Made by a program: the position numbers. DNA of 64,000 nucleotides, from the NCBI GenBank assembly GCA_043797085.1, contig JAZDQA010000005.1, forward strand, positions 128,001-192,000. The letters run 5' to 3'. Source of the DNA: Pseudomonadota bacterium. Lineage in GTDB: Bacteria; Campylobacterota; Campylobacteria; Campylobacterales; Sulfurimonadaceae. Within the stretch, counting starts at the first letter, position 1. The number at the start of each line of letters is the position of its first letter. Below, piece after piece: positions 33,001 through 51,000 of the stretch.

Positions 33001-36000
33001 TAAACCGGGTAAAGGGGCAGCATTTGTCCGTTGTAAAGTTAAAAGTTTTTTAAACGGCAAAGTAGTTGAGAAAACGATTCATGCCGGCGATAAATTCGAG
33101 GTTCCTAATATCGAACACAAAACCATGCAGTATTTGTATGATGACGGTGAAATGCTTCAGTTTATGGACAACGAGAGCTTTGAACAATTAGGTCTTACTT
33201 ATGAGCAATGTGAAGATGCGAGCAAATGGATCAAAGACGGTACAAATGTTCAAATCATCTTGCACAACGGCAAAGCAATCAGCGTTGACGCTCCTGAAAT
33301 CATGGAACTTAAAATCGTTGAAACACCACCAAACTTCAAAGGTGACACATCAAGCGGTTCTAAAAAACCTGCAACGCTTGAAACCGGCGCTGTTGTACAA
33401 ATCCCTTATCACTTGCTTGAGGGTGACATTATCCGTGTTAACACCGTTGAGGGTGAATACATGGAAAAAGTAAAATAAATCTTCTCTATTGCGGATACTC
33501 TCCGCAATCTATTTTCGCCTTTCTTCTTAACTTCAGTACCATCATAAATTATTCAATACAGACTAAAGTTCAAACTAAATATAATTGTCAAAAAGGAGTT
33601 TTGAATGCCAAAAGTTCTAATCCCTATTGCAACAGGTTTTGAAGAGATCGAAGCGGTGAATATCATCGATGTATTGCGTCGAGCGGGTATTGAAGTGATT
33701 ATGGGTGCATTGGATGAGCATATGCTGGTCAAAGGTGCTCACGGTATTACGGTGCAGTGCGATCGTGTCATCACAGGTATCAGTGCGGATGAGCTCGATA
33801 TGATCGTTCTCCCCGGCGGATGGGGCGGAACAAAAGCTCTTGCGCATGATGCAGCCGTTCAATCGCTTTTAAAAGAGATGGATGGCGCAGGGAAAAATAT
33901 CGGTGCAATCTGTGCTGCTCCGTATGCCCTTTATACGGCGGGTGTTCTTAAAGAGGGATACACCTGCTATCCAAGTGTTGAAGATGAGATAAAAGTCGCT
34001 GGATATAAAGGGGATGAAAGTGCTGTGGTTCAAACGGACAACATTATGACCTCTCGCGGTCCTGCAACAGCAATTTGTTTTGGTTTGGCTATCGTTAAAA
34101 AGCTGACGGGTGATGAAGCGTATCATAAAGTTCGTGGCGGTTTGCTGGCAGAATATTGTGAAAAAATATAGTCTTATTCTTTTGAGCGTGTTGAGTTTCA
34201 CTGCTTATGCTGAGGTGCATCTTTCTTCATCTGAAAATTTGACGCAAGAAAATGCCATCCAATATTGTCGTGATATTGGTATAGGATGGAGGGCGCTGTC
34301 TATCCGCGAGTTGTATGAACTTTCTGAAAATATTTCCTTTAATACAGAGTTTAGCTATTGGTCGGGGATGAAAATCATTTCCGGCAATGCTATTACCGGA
34401 ACGGGAAGTGAGGGTGATGGCGGAGTGATTGAAGTGCTGGGATACAGTTTTTTCCCAAAAGAGCGCAACATTACCCTGTCCCCTCCAACGAAAAAAATTG
34501 CTGCTGCGTGTACCAATCTCCTTGAGAGTAAACAAATACATGACTATCATTTAACGCCTCAAGGGACGGAAGATAAAGGTTCAGATCTGCTGTGGCATTC
34601 ACTTAATGCGACGGATAAGCAACGAAAATATACGTATGAATCAGCCAAAGAGATGTGCGAGAATTTAAGCCTGAATGGACGGATTTGGCGACTTCCTACG
34701 GCGGATGAACTGTACGGCATCGTTGATACTGCTTTTATCCGTCCGAGTGTGGATATGAAATTTTTTGGTCCTATGATGCACCGTTACTACTGGACGAGTG
34801 ACACGCTCAATGAGCACGAAGCGTATGCGGTCGGATTTAAGCTAGGTTCCGTTGCTACGGTTGTTAAAACTGAGTCAGCGTATGCACGATGTGTGAGTGA
34901 ATAAACATTTAATGACTATAATATTCGGGTGAGTCAAAAAAACTCATATCCAGCGAGGATCTAAGCTTAAAATTTAACTAAAGCAAGATAAAGTTTGGAG
35001 AGTATAGAGACTTGATGTTTGCACGATTCAATTTCAATTTCTGTCAATAATAGTATAATTTTTCCGATTTATTTAAATAATAACAAGGAAGCCAATGTTG
35101 GACGAGAATGCAGCAATTATCCGTAAAAATGAGGTTATATTTTCAGAGATGGATGGAGAACTTGTGATGATGGATCTTGATAAAAACAGCTACTTCGGGT
35201 TGAATGCTGTCGGTAAAGAGATTTGGGAGCTTTTATCCGAAGCCAATACCATCGGCGGATTATGTGCAACATTGATGCAAAAATACAATGTAGATTTACA
35301 ACGCTGCAAGCAGGATGTTACCGCTCATGTTGATAAAATGGTAGAAGTCGGCATCGTTAAGACTATTTAACAGCTTAAATACTTTACAAAGGATTTGACC
35401 ATATATGGGATCATTTTATTTCATTCAACATTTTATAACTGTTTCGGCAGATTCCATCGCCGATACACTGTTTGAAGCGGTAAAAAAGTATCCTCATGAT
35501 CACGCGGAACGTTTGGTGGCAAATGAGATTGCCATGGGGCGATCGGGTATGCACTGCTATACAAAAACGAACCCCAAAATAGATAATTTTACCCTGAGCG
35601 TCGATGGCAACTGTTTTTATCTGGTGGGGGATATTCGTCTTGATAATCGGTCTGAGTTAATCGAGAGATTAGAATTATCTTCCGATGTATCGTGGTCGAA
35701 TGAAGAGATTATTCTCTGTACGTATCTGCAATTCGGGGAAGATTTTGCCGATTATCTGTTAGGCGATTTTGCATTTGTCCTTCATCATCTCGAAACGGGT
35801 ATGACGTTGGCAGTGAGAGATCATTTGGGGGTTATCCCTCTGTATTATCATGCAAATACCGATTTTATTCTTATCAGTGATACGATCGAGGTGATACTAT
35901 CTCATCCGAGTATCGATCATGGGATAAACGATAACGTAGCGATGGAATTTCTCGTAGCGGGTCATGTTCACAACCAAAGAGAGACTTTTTATACCGTTAT

Positions 36001-48000: not shown

Positions 48001-51000
48001 ATGGAACACAACAATTAATGACGATTGATGAAGCTTATGCTCCAATGGCAATCACGCTGACAACCGAAGAAGAAATTGATATCAGCCGAGGGGATATGAT
48101 CGTTCATTCCAGCCATCTTCCGAGAATTTCTAACAGTCTTAAAGTAATGATAGTTTGGATGGATGAAGAACCAATGATTCCGGAGCAAAGTTATTACATC
48201 AAAACCTCTACCTCATTAATAAACGGAAGTTTTAAGCATATTAATTACAAAGTCAATGTAAATACCTATGAAAAAGTATATGTAGAGAAATTGCAGCTGA
48301 ATGACATTGCTTCATGTAAAATGGTATTGCATCGCCCAATAGTTGCAGAACCGTACAGTCTTAACCGCTTTACGGGTAGATTTATCATCATAGACCGTAT
48401 GACTAACAATACAGTGGGAGCTGGGATGATCGTGGACGTGAGTCGCCGAGAGCATGAAAAGATTATCGAAACCAGTAGAGAATATATAAAAGAGGAAATC
48501 GAATTGAACGCTTATGTCCGTAAACATTTTCCAGAGTGGGGATGCAAAGCAATCTGATGTACAGAGAAACAAATATTCGTACTATCGCTAAAGGATTTAG
48601 CTGGCGCTTTTTTGCAACTGCGACAACTGTCCTTATTGTGTATCTTTTTTTTGGTCGTCTCGATCTCGCGATTGCTGCGGGTATTTTAGAAACGTTTTCA
48701 AAAGTGTTACTCTACTATGGCCATGAGAAATTATGGCAACGTGTCCGATGGGGGAAAAAGAAAATTGAGCCGTTTAATTTATGGTTTACCGGTTTGCCAC
48801 TGTCAGGTAAAACTACTATTGCTGATTTGGTATATGAAAAGCTCAAAAAATACGATATCCCTATGGAGAGAATCGATAGTAAGGATATCCGTGAACTGAT
48901 ACCAGATATCGGGTATACGCGTGAAGATCGGAACCGTCACATGCATCGTCTTGGACATCTTATAAAGACCTTGCAAAATAATTCCATTTCGACAGTGGCC
49001 TCTTTTGTATCTCCTTATCGTGAATCTCGTAAAGCAATACGTGAAATGGTCAAAAATAATGTTATTGTGTACGTCAAAGCCGATATTGAAAGCTGCAAGC
49101 AGCGAGATTATAAAGGAGTATATATTAAAGCACTCAAGGGAGAACTTCAAAATTTTTCAGGTATCAATGATGTGTATGATGAACCACAGCATGCTGAGAT
49201 TACGATAGATTCTGATGAAATGAGTGCAAATGATGCATCCGATAAAATTGTTCAATACATTAAAAAGAGATATATCAAATGATGAGTTCACATGTAGTAT
49301 GGCATGATCACAGTGTATCCAAAGCACAACGTTCATTACAAAAAGACCAAAAACCTTGCATATTATGGTTCACAGGTCTCAGTGGTTCTGGAAAATCGAC
49401 TATAGCTAATGCATTAGATGCCAGATTTGTTGAGATGGGCAAACATACTTATTTACTCGATGGTGACAATATCCGTCATGGACTAAATTGTGATTTAGGC
49501 TTTAGTGATAATGATCGTATTGAAAATATTCGGCGCATTGGAGAGGTAAGTAAACTTTTTGTTAATGCGGGATTGATCGTGATAACTACCTTCATCTCAC
49601 CGTTTCAAGCCGACAGGAAGATGGTTCGTGAATTGGTAGACGAGAGCGAGTTCATCGAAATATTTATAGATACAACACTGGATATATGCGAATTACGAGA
49701 CACAAAAGGGCTATATAAAAGAGCGAGAGTCGGTGAGATTGTAAATTTTACCGGTATTGATTCCCCTTATGAGCCACCAAATAATCCTGAAATCCATATA
49801 AAAACAGAGGTAAGTGATATTACAGAAGCGGTTGAGAAAATTCTTGCTTATCTTGTATTAAATGGGTGGAACCTCTAAGAACCACTTTTTCCGTAGTATA
49901 AATTTCTTTGATTCACAATTCATATATCAAACTGTAGAAAGACTTTGTATATTTGGCTGCAATCATTGATTGGCACAGCAAAAAAATGTGGGGATAATAG
50001 TATTATTATTTAGAAATTATATTCTTTAATAGAAATCTTAGGGTAATATAGTTTTATTCTTAATATTATGGAGAATCTTTTGAATCACGATACAACTATC
50101 AATGAAAATGCACTAAACTACCATGAATTTCCAAGTCCGGGTAAAGTCGCTACCCAAATCACCAAACCATTTGCTTCTCAAAACGACCTGAGTCTGGCTT
50201 ACACTCCCGGTGTTGCGGCTCCGTGTTTGGAAATCCAAAAAAATCCTGAGGATGCCTATCGTTATACCTCCAAAGGCAATCTTGTGGGGGTTATTTCCAA
50301 TGGCACGGCGGTATTGGGACTTGGAAATTTGGGTGCGCTTGCGTCGAAACCTGTTATGGAAGGGAAAGCCGTTTTATTTAAAAAATTCAGCGATTTGGAT
50401 GCGTATGACATCGAAGTGGATGAAACCGACATCGAGCGTTTTTGCGATGCGGTAGAGGCTATTTCTCCGACGTTTGGGGGGATAAATCTCGAAGATATTA
50501 AAGCGCCAGAGTGTTTTGAGATCGAGAGACGGTTGGTTGAACGGTTGAATATTCCTGTAATGCACGACGATCAGCACGGCACGGCAGTGATTTCGAGTGC
50601 GGCTATTATCAATGGATGTTTATTGACATCACGTGAGCTTGATAACATATGTGTGGTGGTAGTCGGTGCGGGTGCAGCAGCGATTAGTTGCGCCCGTCTG
50701 TATCGATTTATGGGGGTTCAAACTATCTTTATGAGTGATTCAAAAGGGCTTATTCATGCAGGACGAAGTGATTTGAACGAACAAAAAAGAGAATTTTTGG
50801 CACCTGTTGGGATGACGCTTGACGATGCATTTATCGGGGCAGATGTCGTGGTAGGGTTATCTAAACCGGGGAGTTTTACCATAGAACATATTATGACAAT
50901 GGCACCTGAACCTATCATTTTCACCCTAGCCAATCCTACTCCTGAAATCTTTCCAGAAGATACGAAAGCAGCTCGACCCGATGCGATTATCGCCACGGGT

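Follow-up and report, generated by a model that had tools for sequence, protein, structure and literature searches.

Core genes and precursor of the cluster

The question raised by this locus is what is made by a lasso peptide gene cluster that also carries a sulfotransferase, genes for PAPS synthesis and a large membrane protein (g651), and which of these additions belong to the pathway. The cluster lies at positions 35095-49880 of the window, that is, of the whole 64,000-nucleotide stretch analysed (contig C5:128001-192000, an offset of 128000 and not 139452 as given in an earlier note), and all genes were found at these positions. We consider it likely that this is a lasso pathway with split B, of the paeninodin/pseudomycoidin type, that includes dedicated sulfation, and its peptide probably receives sulfate besides phosphate. 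New relative to the initial annotation are the kinase-sulfotransferase pairing across many phyla, the status of the PAPS cassette, the recurrence of g651, the mosaic make-up of the cluster, and RNA contigs over the precursor gene.

Domain searches reproduced the core genes that had been annotated. B1 (35095..35370, + strand, 91 aa) is a PqqD-type RiPP recognition element (PF05402, 65.9 bits) that scored 76.2 bits with NF033536 (lasso_PqqD_Bac), slightly below the cut-off of 80. The cyclase, C (35405..37312, +, 635 aa), is an Asn-synthetase-like lasso macrolactam cyclase (PF00733 Asn_synthase, 112 bits; GATase_7, 44 bits), with 231.9 bits for the lasso cyclase model NF033535, below its cut-off of 525. 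The transglutaminase-like leader peptidase B2 (44184..44678, -, 164 aa) exceeded the cut-off of 33 bits for NF033537 with 95.1 bits and matched PF13471 with 86.2 bits, and the exporter, D (42346..44184, -, 612 aa), is an MsbA-like ABC protein (ABC_tran, 100.9 bits; ABC_membrane, 47.7 bits).

The uncalled precursor gene, A, also proved to be real. It was found in the ORF list at 37341..37481 on the + strand and encodes 46 aa, with a predicted leader of residues 1-29 and a core of residues 30-46 (SASLSSPVEGPWSHPFS). It starts with TTG, AAGGA as ribosome-binding site is located 5 nt upstream, and there is no alternative in-frame start codon upstream of the leader motif. The leader is paeninodin-like, with Thr at -2, and the core has Ser1, Glu9 and a C-terminal Ser. 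The match to the paeninodin-family model NF033524 is weak (residues 13-29, E 1.3e-3, 18.4 bits, cut-off 27); this model was matched by 7 of 24 candidate precursors, none of which reached the cut-off. When 16 hand-picked precursors were aligned, W15, P18 and T28 were conserved, and 15 of the 16 end in Ser. In both Sulfurovum loci, moreover, tblastn again placed a leader homologue directly behind the cyclase (E 1.1e-6 and 4.2e-6), as had been reported. A contig of RNA library X1 covers 37320-38258, including the whole precursor gene, with 0 differences, and X1 contigs with 0 differences also lie over B1 and the 5' part of C, over the kinase gene and over the nucleotidyltransferase gene (44796-45811), while another with 1 difference lies over cysD/N; these are strandless assembled contigs of one library, in which DNA carry-over is possible. 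Between the convergent precursor gene and g651, a hairpin with a 9-bp stem (37509..37534) is a possible terminator, the terminator-like site being reported on the - strand from a consensus match alone.

Judged by the families to which these proteins belong, B1 would bind the leader of the 46-aa precursor, B2 would cleave after Thr(-2)-Glu(-1), and the cyclase would link Ser1 to Glu9, giving a 17-residue lasso peptide with an 8-residue tail ending in Ser, which the ABC protein would carry out of the cell.

Kinase, nucleotidyltransferase and sulfotransferase

The other enzymes are likewise present as had been described, namely an HprK-like kinase (K), an NTP_transf_5 nucleotidyltransferase (NT), a sulfotransferase (ST), cysDN and two APS kinases, all by Pfam/NCBIfam matches. 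K (41287..42192, -, 301 aa) scored below the cut-offs of both TIGR04355 (35 bits) and PF07475 (24 bits), and in its P-loop, G134, K135 and S136 do not vary across 40 relatives. NT (44917..46149, +, 410 aa; PF14907, 159.5 bits) is PsmN-like, and its true start may be somewhat further downstream. By analogy with published work on PadeK, PsmK and PsmN, K would phosphorylate the C-terminal Ser of the linear precursor, and NT may attach a hexose to that Ser phosphate.

ST (40457..41290, -, 277 aa; PF00685 Sulfotransfer_1, 99.5 bits) is a PAPS-dependent sulfotransferase of a lasso-linked subfamily, in which the PAPS-binding motifs YPKSGNTW and RNP.D are invariant across 60 relatives. It had been presented as setting this locus apart from its nearest relatives. 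This holds for the nearest cyclase relatives, the Sulfurovum loci L001 and L002, where matches to ST, g651 and PAPS genes are absent as had been stated, but not for the subfamily, which adjoins K in many phyla. Of the reference-genome loci, the 80 closest to ST (the best 80 of at least 600 matches) were examined within 10 kb; K was present at 67, B1 at 55, C at 51, B2 at 41 and NT at 34, and these counts are lower bounds, many loci being cut by contig ends. In 56 of the 67 K-bearing loci, K is on the same strand and directly upstream of ST; here, K overlaps the ST start by 4 nt. Furthermore, overlapping K-ST pairs occur in two lasso clusters of another genome of the same genus (G024), all three of whose candidate precursors end in Ser. 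Gene order thus indicates that ST is no chance neighbour and belongs to the lasso pathway. That ST and its neighbours instead serve a lipid or glycan, with the lasso genes adjacent by coincidence, is strongly disfavoured and in our judgement highly improbable: 10 of the 80 loci had none of the queried genes, one more (L076) had PAPS genes only, and lasso genes were not found at L003 and L004, but the ten hold the most distant sulfotransferases of the set (36-41% identical), and the frequency and position of K argue against such a substrate.

From this gene order, conserved across many phyla, we infer that ST, translationally coupled to the kinase, would be its dedicated partner and would move sulfate from PAPS to the peptide, most likely to a hydroxyl in the Ser-rich C-terminal tail, which is a candidate acceptor only. 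Sugar hydroxyls are common acceptors of sulfotransferases, and K, NT and ST occur together in this cluster; both points favour a different target, in which ST sulfates a sugar placed by NT on the phospho-Ser, so that the product has a sulfated phosphoglycosyl C-terminus and not a sulfated peptide hydroxyl. PsmN is described, in the available part of PMC6993621, as attaching one or two hexoses to the C-terminal phospho-Ser, and sugar-linked genes occur in some K-ST clusters, such as 'sugar-transfer associated' ATP-grasp genes in G024 and in a Mariprofundus locus (L114), the latter with GDP-sugar genes as well. However, among solved structures, Teg12, Teg14 and StaL come closest to ST (E 9e-27 to 4e-17); these are glycopeptide-antibiotic sulfotransferases, and their acceptors are peptide aglycones and not sugars. 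Moreover, NT was seen in only 34 of the 67 K-ST loci (a lower bound, given the divergence of NT and the truncation of some contigs), compared with K immediately upstream in 56, which points to a step linked more to K than to NT. Therefore, ST cannot generally depend on the NT product, although it might still do so in this cluster, and we regard sulfation of the sugar as unlikely.

Source of PAPS

Downstream of NT, a second ATP sulfurylase pair, cysD-cysN (46204..48557, +; NF009214, 522 bits; NF003478, 677 bits), is followed by two APS kinases (APSK) at 48536..49878 on the + strand, the first of which (48536-49282; TIGR00455, 157 bits) has an N-terminal DUF2061 and the second of which is cysC (49279-49878; NF003013, 312 bits). 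That this cysDN is a second copy was borne out: the other, housekeeping copy is located at C7:38327-40635, is 75% and 57% identical, and adjoins a cysH of the APS-reductase type (TIGR02055, 256 bits against a cut-off of 235), so that assimilation there needs no PAPS.

The cassette had been taken as part of what distinguishes this cluster, and its four genes are as described, but it did not arrive with the lasso genes. At least 7 further members of the genus have the same APSK tandem. In all six other members examined, the cassette is present at 64-84% identity and is accompanied by cysQ, and no lasso gene was found within the 16-20 kb fetched around it; a cysQ-type PAP phosphatase was not found in the present genome with the query used. 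Among 65 other genomes of the genus, 17 have the cassette, and of these only G024 has lasso genes, which share a contig with its cassette at a distance of about 45 kb. The cassette of G075 lies beside other sulfotransferases, glycosyltransferases and glycan-biosynthesis genes, and that of G024 beside rml genes in a glycan-biosynthesis locus. The cassette is thus a genus-wide accessory module, mostly without lasso genes, and its adjacency to them here may be fortuitous.

This distribution is what would be expected if the cassette had no function in the lasso pathway and were what is left of a genus-level module for glycan sulfation that happens to adjoin the lasso cluster, and the promoter-like site in the gap between NT and cysD and the presence of an APS kinase near only 6 of 67 K-ST lasso loci elsewhere point in the same direction. 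Nevertheless, we find this rather improbable. A search of the genome showed that these are its only two APS kinases, and no Sulfotransfer_1/3 match besides ST was found genome-wide (the genome is 95.9% complete), so that no other client is visible. Since assimilation proceeds by the APS route, this cassette has to be the source of PAPS for any active ST. In addition, cysD begins 54 nt after NT on the same strand, and at L019, L026 and L056, which belong to other phyla, K-ST lasso clusters likewise have PAPS genes beside them. Whatever brought the two together, PAPS for ST would come only from the adjacent cysD-cysN-APSK-APSK cassette, which this genome would use for the lasso sulfotransferase.

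Membrane protein g651

The gene g651 (37581..40457, -) encodes 958 aa with an RnfD/E5-like polytopic N-terminal domain (NQR2_RnfD_RnfE, residues 151-262), FG-GAP repeats (FG-GAP_3) and a C-terminal ASPIC/UnbV domain (UnbV_ASPIC), all by Pfam. Its description in the initial annotation is thus confirmed, but the protein is not wholly unexplained, as had been held. The ST stop and the g651 start share 1 nt. About 14 full-length ortholog clusters were found. One ortholog, 42% identical, is located inside the Mariprofundus K-ST lasso cluster L114, between the precursors and the ATP-grasp, ST, ABC, B2 and B1 genes. Furthermore, two more phyla have lasso clusters with analogues in which an ArsP permease is fused to FG-GAP and ASPIC parts; in L060 the fusion gene immediately follows ST, and in L073 it follows the ABC gene. 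In structure comparisons with the Atlas, the neighbours of g651 were RnfD-family and 'UnbU' clusters (TM 0.69-0.72). One N-terminal homologue is named 'enediyne biosynthesis protein E5' (E 5.7e-8) and other relatives 'enediyne biosynthesis protein E4', both names being automatic annotations. We take enediyne E5 to be UnbU and E4 to be UnbV, as is also seen in source names, and g651 resembles a fusion of E5-like and E4-like parts.

The role of g651 is the weakest part of our model. It could be an unrelated membrane protein that lies by chance between ST and the precursor gene, a reading that is less probable than its recruitment but deserves real weight: eight of nine reference-genome orthologs lack lasso genes within 10 kb, their neighbours vary with none conserved, and an analogous protein was found near only 2 of the 80 ST loci. 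Against chance stand the overlap with ST, the L114 ortholog, the fusions with a different membrane domain, and the 146 loci of generic FG-GAP/ASPIC proteins (66 from genomes and 80 from metagenomes), none of which contained lasso, K or ST genes. We therefore favour recruitment of g651 to some K-ST lasso clusters, where, co-transcribed downstream of ST, it would probably be an extracytoplasmic handling, export or immunity component.

Mosaic origin and comparison with known systems

The cluster is a mosaic in which B1, C, A, B2, D and NT form a core of Sulfurovum type, joined to a K-ST-g651 module. The cyclase shares 44-45% identity with those of Sulfurovum L001 and L002, against only 22-25% with its counterparts in other K-ST clusters, and B1 is 46-47% identical to its counterparts in L001 and L002. 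NT is 42% identical to that of L002, the exporter has 91% identity with that of G024 and 48% with the L002 protein, B2 is 78% identical to one B2 of G024, and K is 49.5% identical to a G024 kinase.

Lasso clusters with a kinase and a sulfotransferase are common across bacteria. No sulfated lasso peptide was found in the literature searched. The available parts of Letzel et al. 2014 (PMC4289311) and of PMC8498205, which cites Zhu et al. 2016, report the same HPr kinase and sulfotransferase, sometimes with a nucleotidyltransferase, inside uncharacterised lasso clusters, the role being described as unclear. In those clusters, which are from Firmicutes and anaerobes, ST was placed 'at the start of the cluster', whereas our survey places K directly upstream of ST in many phyla, and the present cluster additionally has the PAPS cassette and g651. 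The paeninodin (pade) cluster of Paenibacillus dendritiformis also has split B1/B2, a cyclase, an ABC exporter and an HprK-like kinase that acts on the linear precursor and phosphorylates its C-terminal Ser (PMC8498205, in the part available); the leader is similar and a nine-residue ring is predicted here as well. In contrast, that account, as available, gives no NT, ST, PAPS genes or g651 for pade, and the present precursor falls below the family cut-off in a campylobacterotal host, not a Firmicute. The pseudomycoidin (psm) cluster of Bacillus pseudomycoides shares the kinase and the NTP_transf_5 enzyme PsmN, but its gene order differs, and no sulfotransferase, PAPS module or g651 appears in the available part of PMC6993621.

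RaxX of Xanthomonas is likewise a ribosomal peptide sulfated by a PAPS-dependent enzyme, RaxST, with the PAPS-synthesis pair RaxP/RaxQ co-expressed to supply the donor (PMC9484694, in the part available). However, RaxST sulfates a tyrosine of a linear peptide, whereas here the core lacks Tyr, the scaffold is that of a lasso peptide, and ST is of another family. For g651, the closest parallel is the enediyne cassette, in which E3/E4/E5 are conserved according to the available part of PMC5181780: the C-terminus of g651 is ASPIC/UnbV, and its N-terminal domain is like 'UnbU' clusters by structure (TM 0.69-0.71), but E5 and E4 are two separate genes beside a polyketide synthase in enediyne clusters and one polypeptide in a RiPP cluster here. 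A single further locus was found to combine NT, K, ST, C, precursors with a final Ser, a g651 ortholog, ABC, B2 and B1, namely L114 of Mariprofundus sp. KV (NZ_VWNB01000002.1). It differs in having two precursors, a CxxCxxCC protein, two ATP-grasp genes and a second ST fusion, in the absence of the PAPS cassette, and in a cyclase just 25% identical to that of the present cluster, yet it shares both the g651 ortholog and precursors that end in Ser.

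Organization of the predicted lasso-peptide cluster

The lasso-peptide cluster that the initial annotation placed at window positions 35095-49880 was borne out, with every gene found at its given start and end, when 128000 is subtracted from contig positions (the window being C5:128001-192000) and not 139452, as had been done wrongly in an earlier conversion. On the forward strand, the gene for the PqqD-type RRE protein B1 (35095-35370; PqqD, PF05402, 65.9 bits, cut-off 23.4) is followed by the gene for the cyclase C (35405-37312; Asn_synthase, PF00733, 112 bits, cut-off 21), whose best NCBIfam match was the lasso cyclase model NF033535 with 231.9 bits, below the cut-off of 525, and by a 46-aa precursor gene with a TTG start (37341-37481), found in the ORF list. 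A tight series on the reverse strand converges on these three genes: the leader peptidase gene B2 (44678-44184; lasso B2 model NF033537, 95.1 bits, cut-off 33) overlaps the ABC exporter gene (44184-42346) by 1 nt, the gene for an HprK-like kinase (K; 42192-41287) comes after a gap of 153 nt and overlaps by 4 nt the sulfotransferase gene (ST; 41290-40457; Sulfotransfer_1, PF00685, 99.5 bits, cut-off 22), and ST overlaps by 1 nt the gene for a 958-aa membrane protein (g651; 40457-37581). Diverging from B2 on the forward strand are the gene for an NTP_transf_5 enzyme (NT; 44917-46149; PF14907, 159.5 bits, cut-off 31.2) and a PAPS cassette, a series of cysD, cysN, a DUF2061-APS kinase gene and cysC that was assigned by family models and ends at 49878. 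Housekeeping genes flank the cluster, with EF-P, DJ-1 and an Lcl_C protein encoded on the upstream side and malic enzyme and RhlE on the downstream side. An ORF upstream of B2 (orf103; 44681-44992, reverse strand, 103 aa) had no family match, overlaps the annotated start of NT and is probably spurious; as relatives of NT are about 390 aa long, the real start of NT may be further downstream. Elsewhere in the window, positions 1-10000 have a G+C content of 0.29-0.35, clearly below the value of about 0.40-0.45 in the remainder.

By their family scores, a cyclase, a B2 and a separate PqqD-like B1 are all present, which are the components looked for in a split-B system, and the cluster is predicted to be of the split-B lasso-peptide type. 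Sets of RRE, HprK, NT and MsbA genes can also mark a RiPP family other than lasso peptides, according to the LPP paper (PMC13381572). The lasso reading stands despite such gene sets, because the cluster also encodes a cyclase, a B2 and a precursor of lasso type.

In the groundwater metatranscriptome library X1, a contig identical to positions 37320-38258 spans the precursor gene in full as well as the 3' end of g651. B1 together with the 5' part of C, K, and NT are each represented by further contigs without differences, and cysD/N by a contig with one difference. These contigs weakly suggest that the precursor and the cluster genes are expressed, as assembled contigs are strandless and DNA carry-over is possible. 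Gaps in X1, for example at 38553-39169 and 42872-44105, carry no meaning. Library X4 gave almost no cover, and X2 and X3 contained only fragments of relatives at 90-99% likeness.

Precursor peptide

The uncalled 46-aa ORF that had been proposed as the precursor gene directly after the cyclase was confirmed, with AAGGA located 5 nt ahead of the TTG and no alternative start in the ORF upstream of the leader motif. The claim that a homologous leader follows the cyclase in both Sulfurovum relatives also held, with E values of 1.1e-6 and 4.2e-6. Residues 13-29 match the paeninodin-family model NF033524 (E 1.3e-3) with 18.4 bits, below the 27-bit cut-off, and of 24 candidate precursors taken from related loci, this model matched 7, none of them with as much as 27 bits. 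The weak match therefore indicates a paeninodin-like leader in a peptide that is not a curated family member. The predicted core, residues 30-46 (SASLSSPVEGPWSHPFS), contains no Tyr. The lasso precursor pattern (Thr at -2, a small first core residue, and Asp or Glu at core position 7-9) was found, with Thr28 at position -2, Ser30 as core position 1 and Glu38 as core position 9, and Ser1 and Glu9 would form the macrolactam ring. In an alignment of 16 precursors, which were hand-picked for a recognisable leader from a noisy regular-expression scan, conservation is seen at W15, P18 and T28 (position -2; invariant), an acidic residue is found at about core position 8-9, and Ser is the last residue in 15 of the 16. 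The scan itself gave 74 matches in 48 sources, 41 of them ending in Ser, and many of the 74 were obvious false positives. An alphaproteobacterial locus with K and ST genes (L054, 13121-18708) has five tandem candidate precursors with one common leader and varied cores, all ending in Ser.

Pairing of the kinase and the sulfotransferase

The K protein scored 35 bits with TIGR04355 and 24 bits with PF07475, both below the cut-offs, and its P-loop is invariant in 40 relatives. An HprK-like kinase together with a C-terminal core Ser, and an NTP_transf_5 enzyme, were looked for as marks of tailoring of the paeninodin and pseudomycoidin type, and a predicted kinase of this kind, the Ser and the enzyme are all encoded here. 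PMC8498205 describes a kinase of the K type as phosphorylating the C-terminal Ser on the linear precursor, and PMC6993621 describes one or two hexoses on the C-terminal phosphate as requiring an NT of the type of PsmN, the pseudomycoidin nucleotidyltransferase.

At E <= 1e-10, 4278 homologs of the ST were found. The 60 closest were aligned, the alignment was scanned against one genome per species, and the best 80 of at least 600 matches were kept; a search with the ST as a single protein led to only two alphaproteobacterial loci, both without lasso genes. These 80 loci span Bacteroidota, Chloroflexota, Acidobacteriota, several proteobacterial classes, Verrucomicrobiota, cyanobacteria and others. 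When proteins of the window and of G024, a genome of the same genus with two lasso clusters, were used as tblastn queries (E <= 1e-4, within 10 kb, many loci being cut by contig ends), matches near the best 80 of at least 600 ST loci were found for K in 67, B1 in 55, the cyclase in 51, B2 in 41, NT in 34, APS kinase in 7, cysD with cysN in 4 and a g651-like protein in 2. The 10 loci without any neighbour match are those whose STs are most distant within the set (36-41% identical). Furthermore, K lies directly upstream of ST on the same strand in 56 of the 67 K-bearing loci among these best 80. Gene neighbourhoods of this kind argue that ST truly belongs to the tailoring of lasso peptides.

Within the ST, K13 with the surrounding YPKSGNTW, H91, R117 and S125 do not vary among 60 relatives, and these PAPS-binding motifs are presumably the 5'-PSB and the 3'-PB. 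Among solved structures, the ST profile comes closest to Teg12, Teg14 and StaL, which are sulfotransferases tailoring glycopeptide antibiotics. No sulfated lasso peptide came up in a literature search of full texts, most subscription journals being outside its reach. A Thiohalomonadaceae locus (L089, 9090-18965) carries a duplicated unit of K, ST and cyclase genes, with the copies about 6.4 kb apart and scoring nearly equally.

PAPS supply

The second cysDN and two APS kinase genes, proposed in the initial annotation as serving PAPS synthesis, are the correct genes, all scoring above their cut-offs (CysD 522 bits against 413, CysN 677 against 590, cysC 312 against 163, and the DUF2061-APS kinase, whose DUF2061 is a membrane-type domain, 157 against 138.7). 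The interpretation as a whole was upheld in part, and its implication that the cassette belongs to the lasso cluster's own inventory was unsupported, the cassette being found without nearby lasso genes in the other members of the genus that were examined. An APS kinase was found in 17 of the 65 other genomes of the genus, and the tandem of DUF2061-APS kinase and canonical cysC after cysDN (48536-49878) occurs in at least 7 other members (for example, L105-L110). In all six other members whose cassette was examined, the four proteins are 64-84% identical to those of the window, and queries with lasso, K, ST, NT or g651 proteins gave no match above 80 bits in the 16-20 kb fetched around these cassettes. 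In G024, the cassette stretch is about 45 kb from the lasso clusters. The cassettes are surrounded by glycosyltransferase and other sulfotransferase genes in G075, by rml genes in G024 and by methyltransferase-like and other genes in G006; in these three members, the ones with annotated neighbours, a cysQ-type phosphatase gene follows the cassette, and cysQ was not found in the present genome with the query used. The cassette is an accessory module of the genus that was probably co-opted here.

Another cysDN is located on contig C7 in an operon of cysK, cysH, cysD, cysN, sulfite reductase, sufS and cobA genes. The CysH of this operon passes the APS-reductase model (256 bits, cut-off 235), which indicates that sulfate assimilation needs no PAPS. 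No APS kinases besides the two of the cluster and no Sulfotransfer_1/3 matches besides the lasso ST were found elsewhere in the genome, which is 95.9% complete and shows no further user of the cassette. Because the only APS kinases of the genome are in the cluster and assimilation follows the APS route, an active ST has to draw on this cassette. Elsewhere, PAPS genes are found beside lasso clusters with K and ST as cysDN with APS kinase in three loci (L019, L026, L056) and as APS kinase only in three (L044, L048, L085).

Mosaic origin

B1, C, B2, the ABC exporter and NT are 42-48% identical to their counterparts in a Sulfurovum locus (L002), one of the two nearest by cyclase, and K is 28% identical to the kinase of that locus. 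The other Sulfurovum locus (L001) is a short contig, on which a K fragment 46% identical to the K of the window lies convergent just after the precursor, and compared with that arrangement ST and g651 seem to have been inserted on the downstream side of K. The closest counterparts of K and ST are those of G024 (49.5% and 57% identical). Compared with G024, the ABC exporter is 91% and one B2 78% identical, whereas the cyclases are only 24% identical, which points to recombination between lasso clusters, and the cluster as a whole is a mosaic. G024 is the only one of the 65 other genomes of the genus with a lasso B2 gene; in its locus (L011, C38:110000-129999; 2209-17554), two lasso clusters lie side by side and together hold three HprK-like kinases, two overlapping pairs of K and ST, one NT, one ATP-grasp gene (ATPgrasp_ST) and three candidate precursors all ending in Ser.

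In a sample of 401 genomes of the phylum, B2 scored above the cut-off in 8, including the present genome, and an ST of this subfamily was found in none of the other 7 B2-bearing genomes, while G024 as a positive control gave two strong matches. In what was searched, K and ST are seldom paired in this phylum but often outside it, which fits horizontal acquisition of the module. A locus of Mariprofundus sp. KV (L114) and L089 had been candidates for the closest cyclase relatives and were rejected, as their high scores came from G024 queries and the window cyclase is only 22-25% identical to theirs.

The 958-aa membrane protein

Full-length orthologs of g651, with an RnfD-like domain, FG-GAP repeats and an ASPIC domain in 920-980 aa, form about 14 clusters with 37-54% identity, below which scores drop to generic FG-GAP/ASPIC proteins. 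Among the nine ortholog loci in reference genomes, lasso genes were found in one, the Mariprofundus locus L114, and no conserved neighbour is common to the other eight. The order in L114 is NT, K, ST, CxxCxxCC protein, cyclase, two precursors ending in Ser and the g651 ortholog, followed by ATP-grasp, a second ST, ATP-grasp, ABC, B2 and B1. The CxxCxxCC-domain protein between ST and cyclase is encoded at 6370-6891 of this locus, and 13255-17348 holds two 'sugar-transfer associated' ATP-grasp genes and a gene whose 549-aa product carries a Sulfotransfer_1 domain at its C-terminus; this ATP-grasp family recurs in 5 of the best 80 of at least 600 ST loci and in G024. In addition, analogues of g651 of about 1000 aa, in which an ArsP-type permease replaces the RnfD-like domain, are found in two of the 80 ST loci, directly after ST in a Saprospiraceae locus (L060) and after the ABC gene in an Acidobacteriota locus (L073), and these two are mutual orthologs (about 610 bits). 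As a background control, loci of generic FG-GAP/ASPIC proteins had lasso, K or ST genes in 0 of 66 genome cases and 0 of 80 metagenome cases, the metagenome scan with the g651 alignment having keyed on generic FG-GAP motifs with no close orthologs and serving for this control only. The association of g651 with lasso genes is thus sporadic but unlikely to be due to chance.

With the Rnf model TIGR01946, g651 scored 20.9 bits against a cut-off of 207, its Pfam match covers profile positions 179-289 of 296, and all 15 orthologs examined had weak RnfD matches far below the cut-off; g651 has an RnfD-like fold and is no Rnf subunit. In predicted structures, the neighbours of its N-terminal domain are the RnfD family and clusters named 'enediyne biosynthesis protein UnbU' (TM 0.69-0.72), those with the UnbU name (TM 0.69-0.71) falling below the Atlas naming bar. 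No UnbU-named model was among the NCBIfam matches of g651 and its orthologs, and the ASPIC/UnbV domain (PF07593) of g651 scored 53.3 bits (cut-off 23.4). Standalone RnfD-like proteins of about 290 aa (PF03116), mostly metagenomic, are homologous to the N-terminus of g651 with E values down to 3.6e-54. Among 50 such homologs one was named 'enediyne biosynthesis protein E5' by JGI (E 5.7e-8), and relatives of the C-terminal part were repeatedly named 'E4', both being automatic annotations. We take E5 to be UnbU and E4 to be UnbV. That g651 is a fusion of E5 and E4 is a lead, not a result. According to PMC5181780, every known enediyne cluster has retained E3, E4 and E5 alongside the PKS.

Implications and comparison with known systems

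The cluster itself is confirmed, and its interpretation is partly supported. A further-reaching proposal, which as a joint statement we consider possible but rather doubtful, is that K and ST would form a two-enzyme module placing sulfate at the phosphorylated C-terminal Ser or beside it, a modification undescribed on lasso peptides, and that g651 would be a natural fusion of E5 and E4. If true, sulfated lasso peptides would make up a large subclass, so far uncharacterised, across many bacterial phyla, and E5 and E4 would act together as one extracytoplasmic unit handling natural products. Lasso peptides are prized as very stable scaffolds, and new tailoring reactions broaden what can be made. 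The present genome is a clean case for study of the ST, with a single ST, a single PAPS source and a single precursor.

As early as 2014 (PMC4289311) and 2016 (via PMC8498205), lasso clusters were seen to contain HPr kinase and sulfotransferase genes, with 'role unclear'. That side remark on sulfotransferases has now become a defined target, an ST subfamily found in lasso clusters of many phyla, nearly always behind an HprK-like kinase. The cluster also gives a first contextual handle on the architecture of permease-like domain, FG-GAP repeats and ASPIC domain, the parts of which resemble the unexplained enediyne proteins E5 and E4.
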